Assembly (NCBI GenBank): GCA_963758525.1 | Contig: CAVWVQ010000003.1 | Location: forward strand, 832,001-896,000 | From: an uncultured Phycisphaerales bacterium | Lineage (GTDB): Bacteria > Planctomycetota > Phycisphaerae > Tepidisphaerales > Tepidisphaeraceae | Direction of reading: 5' to 3' | DNA length: 64,000 nucleotides | The notes under the pieces: generated by a model | Databases searched by the model: none | Told to the model about the DNA's origin: nothing | What the model saw: only the letters and a program-made list of their open reading frames with translations | Position numbers and translations under genes: made by a program | Shown: in pieces, positions 840 through 52,238 of the stretch | Layout: the number at the start of each line of letters is the position of its first letter | Numbering within the stretch: the first letter of the stretch is position 1

Positions 840-916
840 ATCGGGGTAGGGAAGGCCGATGGAATTCGGCCTCCCCTCCCGCCAAACCGGACTTGCGGAT
901 CTCCCGCATCCGGCAT
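840..916 (-). mobile_element. Orphan group II intron domain V-VI remnant
   Basis: Minus strand reads TGCCGGATGCGGGAGATCCGCAAGTCCGGTTT-GGCGGGAGGGG-AGGCCGA-ATTCCA-TCGGCCTT-CCCTACCCCGAT, matching DV and DVI with a 3' AY end; resembles the DV at ~38455-38488. Confidence 0.75.
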
Positions 917-1167
917 TCGCCCACGACCGCAGCTAAGCACCGCGGCTCCACCCCGATTGGAGTGCTGTAAAATTTCCACGCCTTTCCGGGTGGATTTCAC
1001 GTCGGATATTGAACGACGATCGCTTCGAAAGCATTGAGAGGGATTGCTGTCGCGAAAAAAGATATTTGTTGCAGCAATGTTCGAGCTTCGTATTCTCATT
1101 GGCTGATCTACATTCGCACTACTTTCGAATGAACGCACAGGGGTGACGCATTCAAAGGGAGGATGTT

Positions 1168-12738: not shown

Positions 12739-12905
12739 TTAGGCGCTGTCTGAAAACCCTAAGCCCTCACGATGGGCCGGATTCGATTCGACAGCGAGGC
12801 GTCGCCCCGCAGTCCGGCTCCGTAGAGCCATCAAGGGGCGGCAACGAAGCAGGCGGATCGAATCCGGCCCACCGTGAGGGCTTAGGGTTTTCAGACAGAG
12901 CCTAG
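12739..12905. mobile_element. MITE-like element with ~50-bp terminal inverted repeats
   Basis: Left TTAGGCGCTGTCTGAAAACCCTAAGCCCTCACGATGGGCCGGATTCGATTCG vs reverse complement of right CTAGGCTCTGTCTGAAAACCCTAAGCCCTCACGGTGGGCCGGATTCGATCCG. Confidence 0.75.
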
Positions 12906-37749: not shown

Positions 37750-38012
37750 CAACACCGGCTCTGGGGGCGTGCCCCCCGCCGCCGTTGCCGTCCTGGTCCA
37801 CGGGGAACCTGGGACTGACGGGTCTGATCGTGTCCGTGAACGACGCGGGTGGACCGGAAGAATGACGTCTTGTCCAGCACCTTCTCCTGGAAGTCTTCGA
37901 GGATCAGATAAATCACCGGCGTAATGATAGTGTGATGAACTGAGATACAGTTACTTCGCCGATGATTACTACGGGACGACGGCAGTCGGCGTCGTTGCCG
38001 ATGCCCAGGCCA
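37750..38012 (-). pseudogene. C-terminal remnant of an RND efflux permease (AcrB/MdtB-like)
   Basis: GLGIGNDADCRRP-VVIIG...VSQFITL / ITPVIYLILEDFQEKVLD across a frameshift; cut off at the 390-bp repeat. Confidence 0.65.
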
Positions 38013-38405
38013 GTCGGCTTTGGGAGATTCACAATCAAGGCGGATTGCCGTCTGCGGAATCTGTTAGAAACAGATTGAATGGACAGTCCATCATGGACGG
38101 CGGAGAGCGCCGTCGAGGATTCTCTGGGAAGTCGAGGAATGGTCCGCACGGCGGCTCGACGCTGTCATCGATTCGGAGCCCACGCTGGAGCCGCCGAGCG
38201 GACCCTGCGCCTCGAACAGACCGAATCGTTGCCAGAGGAGAAATCGGAGGTCAATCAATGTCGCACGGGGTCGAGCGAAAATGATACGTGACGCAATCAC
38301 AACAGATCGGCGGGGACAGCCGCGGGTTCAGCACCAAGGCGCACTGCGGTTGACGACGTGCGCAGACCATGGCCGAGCGCATCGGAATCAATGAGCGAAT
38401 GGCCA
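38013..38405. repeat. ~390-bp non-coding element, copy 1
   Basis: GTCGGCTTTGGGAGATTCACAATCAAGG...GGAATCAATGAGCGAATGGCCA, closely matching 49010-49402 and 49598-49993. Confidence 0.95.
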
Positions 38406-40055
38406 GTAGAGTAGAGAACTGACCGGCCCGATTGCCGATCAGTTCTCCCTCTTCGAACCGGACAGGCGGATTTCCCGCATCCGGCTCTCACGATATCGTT
38501 CTTCTCAAGCATTCACGGACCTCACCTGTTATCACAGGGGCTGTAACCCAAGCAGATGCAGATGAGCGTACCAACTCGTCTCGCCGGTGCCCCGGTAAGG
38601 TCGTTGGCTCCGACGTTTCAGGTGACGGATCAGTCGTGTCTGCACGAAGCTGTTGATCTGGCGGAACGCGTTGCGGGGATATCCTTTGCCAAAGTAGTTG
38701 CTCCAGCCAGCCAGGTGCTCGTTGATCTGATAGATCAACGCCGGGATGGGCAGGAAGCATCGCTCCGGTCCGGTCATTTCCCGCAGCTTATCCCGTTCAC
38801 GCTGCATCGCCTTCTTCGAGGGAAAGAGGTTCAGGTAGCGGTGGGCGCCGCCTTGGCGGTCGCGGTCGTACCGGAACGTATACCCCAGAAAATCCAGACG
38901 CTCGCCCGGCTGATTCAGCTTCGCCGTACGCGTCTTGTCGCGGTTGACCGTCAGTCCAAACCGCCCTTGCAGCGTCTGTTCCACGAACGACTCGATCTGC
39001 CTGTCAACATACCTTGCCAGAATCACAAAGTCGTCGGCATACCGCACCAATCGGGCGTTTGCCCAGCGGTACGGCCCGTCAGATCGGTGGAACAGCTTAT
39101 CGAACCAATGCAGATACAGGTTGGCCAGCAATGGGGAGATGACCCCGCCCTGCGGCGTCCCCTGTTTGCTCCGGCTGGCCTTGGGCGGGTCGCCGGGACC
39201 ATCGCCCCGTTCCACGATCACCGCTTTGAGCCACATCCGGATCAGCTTCAGCACGCTTCCATCCACGATGCGCTTCTGGACACATGCCATCAGCTTCTCG
39301 TGGGGGATCGTGTCGAAGTACGACTGCAAATCCGCGTCGTACACTTCCCGCCGCCCCTGCTGGAGGTTTTCCTTGATCTCCTCCAGCGCATCGTGGGCCG
39401 AACGACCGGGACGGAATCCGTACGAACAGTCCAGGAAGTCCGCCTCGAAGATCGGCTCCACGAGCAGCAGCACCGCCATTTGCACCACACGGTCTGTGAC
39501 CGTGGGGATGCCCAATGGGCGGAGCTTGCCGTTGGCCTTGGGAATGTACACACGCTTCACCGGCTGCGCGCGGTAGGTTCGGGTCTTGAGCGATTCTTGA
39601 ATTTCGCCCAGGAATCCCGTCACGCCGTGTTCGGTGTTTCGCACCTCGTCGATGCTCACACCGTCCACGCCAGGTGCGCCGTTGTTGGCGGCCACCTGTT
39701 CCCATGCCGCACGCAATACGTCTGGCCGGCAGACCGTTTCATACAACGTGTAGAAACGGAATCCCGGCTCCCGCTTGGCTTTGAGGTATAGCTTCTGTCG
39801 CAGAAGAAAGACTTTCCCCGGCAAACCCTTGCCGTTCACCTTGAAGTGCACGGGCAGGTCGTTCGGCTCTTCCGTCCTATTCCCAATCTCTCGGGACAAT
39901 CGGGCCTCTCTTCCTTTTACATCCGCTTGATATCGTCAGGACTCCTTGGCTCCACGGGCATTACGCCGTTTCATCGCGACTATGAGCCCATCCGACTCCT
40001 CGCATGACACGCCTGATGGTTATGTCTTCCCATCCAGCGTCCGCGGTTGCCCGCC
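38406..40055 (-). mobile_element. Group II intron, intact 3' end, 5'-truncated
   Basis: DV GAGCCGGATGCGGGAAATCCGCCTGTCCGGTTC, DVI hairpin and CTCTAC 3' end at 38406; only ~150 nt of intron-like sequence upstream of the ORF and no GUGYG start seen; 40055 is approximate. Confidence 0.88.
38532..39899 (-). CDS. ltrA: Group II intron reverse transcriptase/maturase (no endonuclease domain)
   Basis: [52 protein letters not shown], domain X GWSNYF. Confidence 0.96.
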
Positions 40056-40224
40056 GAAATTGCGGCCTGATGCGGCCCTGAGCGGTCGGTCAACATTTAC
40101 TGCCAAACGCTCGCGGCCGCATTACAGTAACCCCCCCGTATAATGTCGGAAAACGTCGGAAAACGTCGGATGGATGGGTCAAAGTGGATAGTGAAACCAA
40201 TACGTTTTACTGCGACGCGTGTCT

Positions 40225-45084: not shown

Positions 45085-45540
45085 TCATTCTCCAGCGCCC
45101 GCTGCCAGCGCGGGAACCGCTTCCCAGGCCGATTGGTACGTTGCCTCCAGAGGGAGCGGGACATAGATGTCGGTCGTCAGGAACAGCGGCATTTCGGGAA
45201 GGGTCGAGCCGACGGAGACCGGCTCGATGAAAGCCTCCTGGCTGGCGCCGCCCATATAGGATGCGACGGTCAGCGGCCGATCCGTCGGCAGAACGAAATC
45301 ACTCGAATCCAATTCATCCCAGATCAGTTTGGCGATCCCCTGCGGGTCACGCGGGGTCGGAGGAAACGGATCGATGACGAGCAAGTGAATTCCGCCGCGT
45401 AGCTTTTGCGAAGCTTTCTCAGCGAAGGTGCGGATAGCGCCGGGCGAACGCTTGTTTCCGGGAGAAATGATTTCAATGACGGCAATCGTGCGATCGTTGC
45501 TCACGTGCCGAACGACGACTCGACTGGCCTTAATGGCGTA
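45085..45540 (-). pseudogene. DUF4058-family protein, N-terminally truncated
   Basis: IAVIEIISPGNK, IHLLVID, LPEMPLFL, PLEATY. Confidence 0.65.
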
Positions 45541-45548
45541 GGAAGCTG

Positions 45549-45944
45549 TTAAGGTGACATCCACCGTTTTTATTTGCCTTTTTCCGGCATCTTCGGCCTG
45601 CCTCTCGGATTCAGAGTGTACTGCAGCCCCATCCGGCCCGCCATTTTCAGGGTCCAGGGATCGCTTCCCAGCGGCCGGCCACGCTCGAAGCTAAGTGCCA
45701 CCCGTTTCACGGCGGCCGGATCCATCGGCTCGTTCACCAGCGCCGTCCAGTTCCGCGGGCGGTCGATCGGCCAATCGTCGAGCAGTTGTCTCGCCAGCTC
45801 TTTCTCGCAGCCCAGGCTCGACCGGTGCCAGTCCTGCGCCCGCTCCACCATCTTCGCCCGCAATGGATTGGCTTCCACATAACGCAGCAGTGTCAGCAAA
45901 TGCCCGTCCTCCTGGACAACGAAGCTCTTGTAGCGACCCTGATA
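45549..45944 (-). mobile_element. REP-associated tyrosine transposase (RAYT, IS200-like) C-terminal remnant with flanking REP-like end
   Basis: YQGRYKSF, YVEANPLRA, WHRSS, PRGRP; followed by GGTGGATGTCACCTT. Confidence 0.75.
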
Positions 45945-46672
45945 ACCGCTTCATCCATCCAATCGTCGCTGATCTTGTCGGCCACACGCGGGTCCTCTTT
46001 GATCGCCGCGAGGTTGGCCGTGGCCATCACCAGCGTGTCGGTCACCGTCGCGGTATCGCCCGCGGCGGCATCGCACACGTTCACCGCCAGGATCGCGCCG
46101 TGACGCCGTGACCCCCTTCGGAGAGGTCCACCGCGTGCTCGGCCTTGTGGGCCAGATGCGTCGTGCCGTCCTTCATCTTGGTGATCTTCGCTTGGGGATC
46201 GCGCGGGTTGTGCCAGTCATCGTTGCTGGCCTTGTTTTTCCGCTTCTTATCCAGCTTGGCCAGTTCTTCCCGCGTGGGCGTTTCGATGCCGCTCTCTTTG
46301 GCCAGACGGGTGAGGAACTCCTGATAACCCTCGCCGCTGTCCCGACGCACGATCGATCGCATCGCCGCGTTGGCCTCCAATGTCGTGGAGTCCACGCCCG
46401 CGGTTTTTCCCTGGATCAAGTCGTGGTTGGCCAGAATCTTCAGGATGTGAGTGAACACCTCGGCGTGAGTTTCGATGTCGATCAGACGCCGCGTCCGCGA
46501 GATCGTCGAATGGTCCGGGGCGGCCTTGTTCACCGGGATGCCCAGGAACAGCTTGAGTGAACTGCTGTCATTGCAGCGCCAGTCGATCCCGCGTTCGGAG
46601 TCGATGCCCTCGAAGTAGCCCACCAGCAGGCAGCGGAAATACACGCCCGGAGCAACGCCCGGCCGCCCGCCC
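45945..46672 (-). mobile_element. IS1182-like transposase fragment, truncated at both ends
   Basis: GRPGVAPGVYFRCLLVGYFEGIDSERG, PDHSTISR, VDSTTLEANA, HLAHKAEHAVD. Confidence 0.8.
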
Positions 46673-48861: not shown

Positions 48862-49009
48862 TTGACGGGGAAAGCTGGGGCCTGGACGCTCTGATTGCAA
48901 ATTCGGGCGGCAGTGAACGTCGCATCGCGGATGGTCATTTCAGCAAGGAGTCAGAAGTTCGGACAATCGGGCTGCGGCCCAGGCGCAGAGCAATTCCGAC
49001 GGACGGTCC

Positions 49010-49538
49010 GTCGGCTTTGGGAGATTCACAATCAAGGTGGATTGCCGTCTGCGGAATCTGTTAGAAACAGGCTGAATGGATAGCTCATTATGGACGGCGG
49101 AGAGCGCCATCGAGGATTCTCGGGGAAGTTGAGGAATGGTCCGCACGGCGGCTCGACGCTGTCATCGATTCGGAGCGCACGCTGGAGCCGCCGAGCGGAC
49201 CCTACGCCTCGAACAGACAATCGTTGCCAGAGGAGAAATCGGAGGTCAATCAACGTCGCATGGGGTGCAAGCGAAAGTGATACGGTGACGCGATGACAAC
49301 AGATCCGCGGGGACAGCCGCGGGTTCAGCACCAAGGCGCACTGCGATTGACGACGCGCGGAGACCATGGCCGAGCGCGTGGGAATCAATGAGCGAATGGC
49401 CACAAAAAACACAAAAACACAAAAAGGAAATAGAGAGGCCACGCGCAACAGCAGAAAGTGAATCGGAAGCTGCTCTCGTCCTCAGCCTCTCTTTTTTTTG
49501 TGTCGTTTGTGCTTTTTCGTGGCAATCACTCTTTTGGG
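49010..49538. repeat. ~390-bp element copy 2 plus 125-bp A/T-armed palindrome (49399-49523)
   Basis: Direct repeat of 49598-50131; arms GCCACAAAAAACACAAAAACACAAAAA...AGAGAGGC / GCCTCTCT...TTTGTGTCGTTTGTGCTTTTTCGTGGC. Confidence 0.95.
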
Positions 49539-49541
49539 AAG

Positions 49542-49591
49542 AACTAAAGGTGACGCGAACCATAATATAAACGTTCGCGTCACCTTTAGTT
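49542..49591. repeat. REPIN-like perfect 19-bp inverted repeat
   Basis: AACTAAAGGTGACGCGAAC-12 nt-GTTCGCGTCACCTTTAGTT. Confidence 0.85.
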
Positions 49592-49597
49592 ATTCGC

Positions 49598-50131
49598 GTC
49601 GGCTTTGGGAGATTCACAATCAAGGTGGATTGCCGTCTGCGGAATCTGTTAGAAACAGGCTGAATGGATAGCTCATTATGGACGGCGGAGAGCGCCATCG
49701 AGGATTCTCGGGGAAGTTGAGGAATGGTCCGCACGGCGGCTCGACGCTGTCATCGATTCGGAGCGCACGCTGGAGCCGCCGAGCGGACCCTACGCCTTTG
49801 GAACAGACGGAATCGTCGGCAGAGGAGAAACTGGCGGTTAATCAATGTCGCACGGGGTCGAGCGAGAATGATACCGTGACGCAATCACAACAGATCGGCG
49901 GGGACAGCCGCGGGTTCAGCACCAAGGCGCACTGCGATTGACGACGCGCGGAGACCATGGCCGAGCGCGTGGGAATCAATGAGCGAATGGCCACAAAAAA
50001 CACAAAAACACAAAAAGGAAATAGAGAGGCGACGCGCAACAGCAGGAAGTGAATCGGAAGCTGCTCTCGTCCTCAGCCTCTCTTTTTTTTTGTGTCGTTT
50101 GTGCTTCTTCGTGGCAATCACTCTTTTTGGG
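49598..50131. repeat. ~390-bp element copy 3 plus palindrome (49990-50115)
   Basis: Direct repeat of 49010-49538 with clustered central differences. Confidence 0.95.
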
Positions 50132-51655: not shown

Positions 51656-51742
51656 GCACGAAGGGTGAGGAAGGGGATTGGAAACGGAGGGGGAATTGCA
51701 AATTGGGGATTGCAAATATTGCAAATTGCAAATTGCAAATTG
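51631..51742. repeat. Short arrays: GGCACG(A/T)A x4 and (GCAAATT)n
   Basis: Read directly; GCAAATT-like units also at 50591-50607. Confidence 0.8.
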
Positions 51743-51813
51743 GAACTACCGCGAAGGGCAAGCTACTTCGACACCGTCGGCGAGTTCCAGATCATGCGAT
51801 GTCGGCAGTTCCG

Positions 51814-52202
51814 CCTTCGTCCCTTCGTCCCTTTGTCCCTTCGTCCCTTTGTCCCTTCGTCCCTTTGTCCCTTCGTCCCTTTGTCCCTTTGTCCCTCCGT
51901 CCCTTCGTCCCTTCGTCCCTTTGTCCCTTCGTCCCTTCGTCCCTCCGTCCCTTCGTCCCTGTGTCCCTGTGTCCCTTCGTCCCTTCGTCCCTTCGTCCCT
52001 TCGTCCCTTCGTCCCTTCGTCCCTTCGTCCCTTCGTCCCTTCGTCCCTTCGTCCCTTCGTCCCTCCGTCCCTTCGTCCCTTCGTCCCTTCGTCCCTTTGT
52101 CCCTGTGTCCCTCCGTCCCTTCGTCCCTTCGTCCCTTCGTCCCTTCGTCCCTTCGTCCCTTCGTCCCTCCGTCCCTTTGTCCCTCCGTCCCTCCGTCCCT
52201 TC
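51814..52202. repeat. 8-bp tandem array (consensus CCTTCGTC) of ~48 units
   Basis: Units TCCCTTCG, TCCCTTTG, TCCCTCCG, TCCCTGTG; intergenic between convergent genes. Confidence 0.97.
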
Positions 52203-52238
52203 CCCCTTCCATCACCTTCCACCCTCCACTCACCCGAT

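Follow-up and report, generated by a model that had tools for sequence, protein, structure and literature searches.

A truncated group II intron in a planctomycete genome and the tandem-repeat arms that house its relatives

The intron relic with its filled and empty sites

The window, the whole stretch of 64,000 nucleotides analysed here, carries on its minus strand a 5'-truncated group II intron (38406..40056) comprising part of domain II, domain III, domain IV with an open reading frame, DV, and DVI, as judged from its likeness to the sister intron L072, with which it is 86% identical over 1652 nt starting from L072 position 324 (window 40056). The GUGYG 5' end and domain I, both present in full-length relatives, are absent from this copy, and blastn returned no match for domain I in the window's own genome (G000). 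This loss of domain I and of the 5' exon beyond 40056 leaves the window copy a relic that has no EBS sequences. DV and DVI (38406..38489, minus strand) end in CTCTAC and match RF00029 over the whole model (positions 1-77, 52.9 bits, 38489-38406), the match stopping exactly at 38406; the terminal AC agrees with the AY rule for group II introns. DV has an AGC triad, a GAAAT loop, and one gap relative to the Rfam consensus. Domain IV holds an intact reverse transcriptase (RT)/maturase frame of 455 aa with a YADD motif (38532..39899, minus strand), which scores 388.9 bits against TIGR04416 (cut-off 300) and in which RVT_1 and GIIM are the only Pfam matches, with none to an HNH endonuclease (En) domain. 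Class C (IIC) introns have a CGC triad and a short DV. The AGC triad and the domain content thus bear out the original prediction of a non-IIC intron without an endonuclease domain; that prediction had also called DV full length, which it is not quite, as it measures 33 nt with a 5-nt loop. A second DV-DVI relic lies at window 840-918 (minus strand), its DVI end related by eye to another G000 intron family. There is also a further G000 group II intron family of 1895 nt (40% identity), present in several copies (C1 202060, 204907, and 207354; C2 270179; C3 3035337) after GCAGCGGTTTAG and before TTCAAC, at sites that look like attC-type sites in a cassette array.

Read on the minus strand, the intron end ...GTTCTCTACTCTAC meets TGGCCATTCGCTC at 38406/38405, so that the 3' end is joined to TGGCC at the coordinates given earlier. 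The 3' exon is the left 395 bp (38011..38405, plus strand) of a dispersed repeat of ~530 bp that the intron interrupts at GGCCA, and it is 93% identical to two empty copies on the plus strand. The first of these (49006..49540) contains a 125-bp palindrome (49399-49523) with TTTTTG|TGGC at 49403/49402 of the minus strand as the predicted target, the bar marking the insertion point; the second (49597..50130) contains a palindrome at 49990-50115 with a predicted target at 49994/49993. Both read ...TTTTTGTGTTTTTGTGTTTTTTG|TGGCCATTCGCTC across the equivalent sites 49402/49403 and 49993/49994, and both continue into the A-rich palindrome arm at the same point, in agreement with the proposal that the window holds one filled and two empty sites. 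The 395-bp left part occurs in G000 in 16 copies of at least 300 nt, the filled copy included, and the other 15 all continue with the A-rich sequence GCCAC(A)n that forms one arm of a ~125-bp palindrome. The palindrome at 49399-49523 folds at -34.1 kcal/mol (z -5.5; 0/200 shuffles as good), and a looser form of the target pattern is found 24 times in G000 versus 2 for the reversed control. In four reading frames of the ~530-bp unit, nothing exceeded the Pfam cut-off, and Rfam gave no match either.

The full-length sister L072 has CAAAA as EBS1, A as EBS3, and TTTTTG as its 5' exon, which together predict insertion at TTTTTG|T, as found in the window's empty copies; the EBS/IBS pairing that was to be checked in a full-length copy is present in L072. 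That 38405/38406 arose by deletion or by a faulty join in the assembly is hardly credible. Such an origin would fit with the break at 40056, the element's other end, which is a rearrangement, and no public run crosses 38405/38406. No RNA run was listed among the public data and no run contained half of the sequence words, so that these runs speak neither for nor against the junction. However, the join sits at the exact last intron base, where RF00029 ends, and at the exact G|T step predicted from EBS1 and EBS3 of L072, and CTCTAC|TGGCC recurs at the independent loci L020, L038, L067, and L089.

Several other features were observed in the window. A short perfect inverted repeat (AACTAAAGGTGACGCGAAC...GTTCGCGTCACCTTTAGTT, 49540-49596) links the two tandem empty copies. 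Between the filled and empty sites, 45088-46644 contains DUF4058 gene fragments, a DUF772 transposase, and an open reading frame without a Pfam match that by eye resembles the C-terminus of a tyrosine transposase. A long 8-nt tandem array at 51726-52230 adjoins a short tandem of the AATTGCA type (51694-51753) beside a DHH-family gene, and an inverted repeat with 56-nt arms that are 91% complementary lies at 12740-12904.

Relatives of the intron and the repeats that flank them

An RT query identified 46 loci in genome contigs, to which added genome searches contributed further loci, and a DV-DVI pattern blind to the flanks identified 56 loci in metagenomes; in viral contigs, no relative of the window RT was found. 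FastTree placed 63 of 96 proteins, the window copy included, in a single clade (SH 100) with hosts among the Planctomycetota, Acidobacteriota, Gemmatimonadota, and Nitrospirota and in one archaeal bin. FastTree and quick trees pair the window copy with L072 as its sister (support 98-99, 86-87% identity). The clade is sister to a group with plasmid introns that bear the label F(g2-g5) in the PMC8919778 supplement, with a support of only 83 in a FastTree that has long branches and from which basal-F references are absent; these plasmid introns form a separate clade and do not reside in tandem arms. At the level of RT identity, the clade is closer to F (41-43%) than to C, D, E, g1, and CL1A (28-36%). 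The AGC triad is present in 85/87 loci in addition to the window copy, as opposed to the CGC triad of class C, and the DV loop has 5 nt in 83 of the 87 loci with a pattern match. A mostly acidobacterial subclade (L019, L020, L022, L023, L025, L029, L034, L037, L151, and L170) has the non-canonical 5' ends GTACA, GAACA, GAATA, or GTATG instead of GTGCG.

We obtained 65 clade 5' junctions, twenty of them with 5' ends set by hand from shared intron starts; 60 had at least 20 nt of exon and, with genome G301 counted once, gave 48 sites, all of which are survivors of selection. Scoring a tandem unit wherever the final five bases of the exon recur at a lag of 7-11 nt, we found one at 40/48 clade sites compared with 0/17 outgroup introns (24 tried, 7 dropped without a 5' end), the background in G000 being 480/3000 random positions (16%) and 538/2998 motif-matched positions (18%). 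The enrichment anticipated in the flanks of RT homologues is thus present, in the form of tandem arms with units of 8-9 nt. In G301, 13/13 near-identical copies are preceded by GCGCCTCTG and 12/12 with a 3' end are followed by CG, while the empty 11-mer occurs 51 times versus 8 for the reversed control. Other clade arms read TCCGTGTTCATCCG|TG, TCTGCGTTTATCTG|CG, TTGGCGTCTTGG|CG, and TTCGTGCCCTTCG|TG, and 83/90 of the 3' exons, a set that includes the 12 G301 copies and the window copy and leaves out three duplicates and two distant loci, begin with CG or TG.

The original prediction had named the GCCAC(A)n palindrome family as the home of the lineage. This holds, with the family written as GCC[AG]C(A)n, for the sister exons: L067, L089, and L079 show no difference from L072 in the final 95 nt, have the 3' exons TGGCCAA, TGGCCAA, and CGGCCAT, respectively, and carry an A-rich arm of the GGCCGC..AAAAACGCAAAG type 20-40 nt beyond each 3' exon start. 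For the clade it is too narrow, as the targets extend to a whole superfamily of 8-9-nt tandems. A few introns have moved to other palindromes, namely L068 and L046, which lie in TTTCG|TGCTTCG arms, and L151, L154, and L170, which lie in arms of the CCGCTCCCTCACGGTCG|CGG type. No tandem unit is present at 8/48 clade sites, among them those of L154, L170, L106, and L017, the last of which looks intragenic by eye. In L069, two tandem intron copies have one 8-nt unit (TGTCTCTG) between them, which suggests successive insertions into neighbouring units of one arm.

The repeats are also associated with a gene family. In G000, each of the four PF13366/GxxExxY genes has such palindromes on its flanks, which for one gene belong to the GCCAC(A)n subfamily, and in a set of 34 GxxExxY loci, one dropped for want of a tblastn hit, an arm pattern derived from the introns lies within 250 nt of 32/33 genes and on both sides in 31, whereas 14% of random window pairs have it. 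That nearly all of these genes carry arms makes it tempting to speculate that the introns of the clade live as dedicated parasites on an undescribed mobile element, with GxxExxY nuclease genes framed by its tandem arms; the introns would read two successive units, retune EBS1-3 for each subfamily, and maybe use nicks or single-stranded DNA made by GxxExxY for priming or for travel across phyla. Against this rather unlikely scenario, the incomplete genome G301, with its 13 recent copies, has no GxxExxY match and a scan of the intron flanks for the GxxExxY motif found none; the introns show no evident reliance on the gene.

EBS/IBS pairing and the role of the hairpin

Pairing was scored in 29 introns with both exons, 33 having been aligned and 4 dropped for short exons. 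EBS1 forms Watson-Crick pairs with exon positions -5 to -1 in 130/145 cases (shuffled 93.9 +/- 4.8) and EBS3 with position +1 in 28/29 (shuffled 13.6); none of 20,000 shuffles reached either score, although shuffling ignores kinship, so that p values overstate. For EBS2, the effect in a single fixed register is modest (51/116 vs 44.4, p 0.007). The complement of its core (CGC or CAC) lies one unit upstream in 14/29 introns in registers -6 to -8 (shuffled 6.6) and in 21/29 when register -9, added afterwards, is included (shuffled 10.9). The EBS1 consensus is five bases, C-N-R-A-N, and the core of EBS2 corresponds to G-Y-G in the unit before it; moreover, the middle base of EBS2 equals EBS3 in 24/29 introns, which is what one would expect of two elements that read one and the same position in consecutive units. 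EBS1, EBS2, and EBS3 change together with the repeat subfamily. Among 30 introns, EBS1 takes the form of 12 different pentamers, and matched EBS/IBS switches separate the well-supported sisters L075/L083, L081/L102, L016/L017, and L012/L063/L103. In L106, EBS1 pairs at only 1/5 positions. The EBS1 and EBS2 segments lie in loops of a weak consensus fold.

A short recognition sequence raises the question of whether the repeats are truly targeted, because insertion might occur at any EBS1/EBS3 match and survive only in harmless intergenic repeats. EBS1 and EBS3 together span only 6 nt, and motif-matched sites number 13,705 on one strand of G000 contig C3 alone; splicing in vitro can do without EBS2 according to the available text of PMC3753933, and a few sites fall outside repeats. 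Survival alone, however, would permit any intergenic 6-mer, yet the EBS2 core covaries with the preceding unit, 13/13 recent G301 copies share 9 exon bases rather than 5, and 0/17 outgroup introns, several from the same host families, are in tandem sites. We regard untargeted insertion as decidedly improbable.

Targeting of the repeats could still proceed through the hairpin itself, and the original prediction indeed took the hairpin foot as the signal, in the manner of IIC or attC sites. This is not supported: the empty site in the window palindrome lies 4 bp inside the paired stem, and 21/35 clade sites have no upstream arm that folds back. In DNA folding, the 14/35 clade sites that fold back exceed the background (31/200, p 0.002). 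A hairpin or cruciform might nevertheless be required in addition to pairing, as in IIC-attC introns, if today's solo arms lost their partner after insertion. Besides the excess over background, this idea draws on the window's empty sites, which are strong hairpins, and on G301, where 11/12 filled sites fold back. However, the empty G301 sites do so nearly as often (34/42, Fisher p 0.67), the majority of clade sites lack the fold-back, and for seven sites (L012, L014, L023, L025, L026, L037, and L048) the upstream 750-1500 nt contain no partner that has fewer than 3 mismatches over 12 nt. With L072 and L084 left out, a near-perfect partner lies within 150 nt at 8/39 sites. In addition, IBS bases within a hairpin would be paired and hidden from the EBS. 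A further structural requirement therefore seems unlikely, and the hairpin is probably not needed for insertion. With fold-back at only 14/35 sites, the data favor EBS/IBS homing over stem-loop targeting of the IIC type, and the position at the foot can be explained by IBS2, which needs a unit upstream, so that the final or penultimate unit of the pyrimidine-rich arm is used.

A model for homing and its relation to known systems

Altogether, the sequence comparisons support a model, to which we assign a probability of about 0.8, in which the window element is the relic of an En-less, class-F-like intron whose relatives reside in pyrimidine-rich tandem arms and likely home there through RNA-DNA pairing alone. 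In this model, the repeat period would fit the IBS2-IBS1-IBS3 spacing, and any two successive units would then constitute a homing site irrespective of a partner arm. By analogy to RmInt1, the intron RNA might reverse-splice into single-stranded DNA at the replication fork, with the nascent strand priming cDNA synthesis. The window copy would once have inserted into a TTTTTG|TGGC arm and may have lost its 5' exon and domain I in a subsequent deletion, after which it would no longer splice.

A lagging-strand bias has been reported for class F introns in the accessible part of PMC8919778. On G301 contig C2, eight consecutive copies between 1.30 and 4.27 Mb are in plus orientation and three outside are in minus orientation, a blocked arrangement with a chance of 11/165 = 0.067 (by hand) that is suggestive of a fork-strand bias. 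The replication strand is difficult to read in this genome: GC skew is noise and uninformative, and there are two dnaA genes with dnaN beside neither. The position of dnaN at 0.95 Mb fits the orientation switch, the parS-like sequence at 4.61 Mb does not stand out from its control, tRNA loci agree with the blocks in 22/35 cases (hand count, p 0.09), and in a strand check rpsC agrees and 16S rRNA disagrees. The same contig contains a tRNA array at 3.70 Mb.

Among known introns, the basal class F group formed by Ge.ur.I1, So.us.I2, and Pe.th.I2 is the most similar in the available portions of PMC3552965 and PMC3753933, with the same RT-X without En, a length of ~1.9-2.05 kb, a 5-nt DV loop, and EBS1/EBS2/EBS3. 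The clade likewise combines an RT-X lacking En with a 5-nt DV loop and EBS1, EBS2, and EBS3; the loop is a class F trait that is also found in class E, as stated in the portion of PMC3753933 at hand. In Ge.ur.I1-1, splicing also takes place at additional 5' sites that lie 9 and 19 nt upstream and follow AUUCG and CAUUCG, with CGUGU as IBS2 (PMC3753933, available text); these motifs agree with the ATTCG|TG subfamily of arms in which L063 and L098 reside, and the upstream sites fit a 9-nt tandem arm. The motifs quoted in PMC3753933 suggest that the clade may be basal class F. The accessible text of PMC3552965 describes the location of basal class F introns as 'putative non-coding sequence', that of PMC3753933 never uses the word 'repeat', and in neither is a repeat named as the target. 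Our model offers testable answers to why Ge.ur.I1-1 would mis-splice 9 and 19 nt upstream, namely because its exon is a tandem arm, and to why IIF introns would retain an EBS2 that is dispensable for splicing, namely because it reads the preceding repeat unit in homing.

The clade thus combines ordinary homing chemistry with the attachment of a whole lineage, spread over Planctomycetota, Acidobacteriota, and further phyla, to a single superfamily of non-coding repeats, with repeated retargeting through changes of 1-3 EBS bases. It provides natural intron-target pairs for the study of En-less homing with short recognition sequences and draws attention to the unstudied GxxExxY-linked repeats. 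REP/TIR repeats with their RAYT/TIRYT transposases are also dispersed extragenic palindromes that flank a dedicated small gene, as described in the accessible sections of PMC3733652, where introns are not mentioned. Unlike these, the clade arms are 8-9-nt tandems, and the gene is GxxExxY (TIGR04256, PF13366) and not a tyrosine transposase.

RmInt1 (IIB3, class D) is similarly En-less, uses EBS/IBS pairing to home into a multicopy element that is abundant (ISRm2011-2), and prefers the lagging-strand template, as set out in the available text of PMC8914252; its target, however, is one IS coding sequence, whereas the clade targets a non-coding tandem-repeat superfamily with EBS sequences retuned in at least 12 ways. 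IIC and IIC-attC introns are also En-less and also have a lineage-wide preference for a class of palindromic sites. They differ in lacking EBS2 and part of EBS1 (PMC3753933, in part), while the clade has a 5-nt EBS1 and a covarying EBS2, and in inserting at terminator or attC motifs (PMC4424553, in part), while more than half of the clade sites have no local hairpin. A full-text literature search, with most subscription papers and theses beyond its reach, returned no description of such repeat targeting. Finally, we note that the available text of a 2015 review distinguishes three target specificities of bacterial group II introns, namely homing sites, terminators, and attC (PMC4424553). Against this background, the homing chemistry of the clade is the standard one, and its new part is a lineage-wide and repeatedly retuned preference for a tandem-repeat superfamily.
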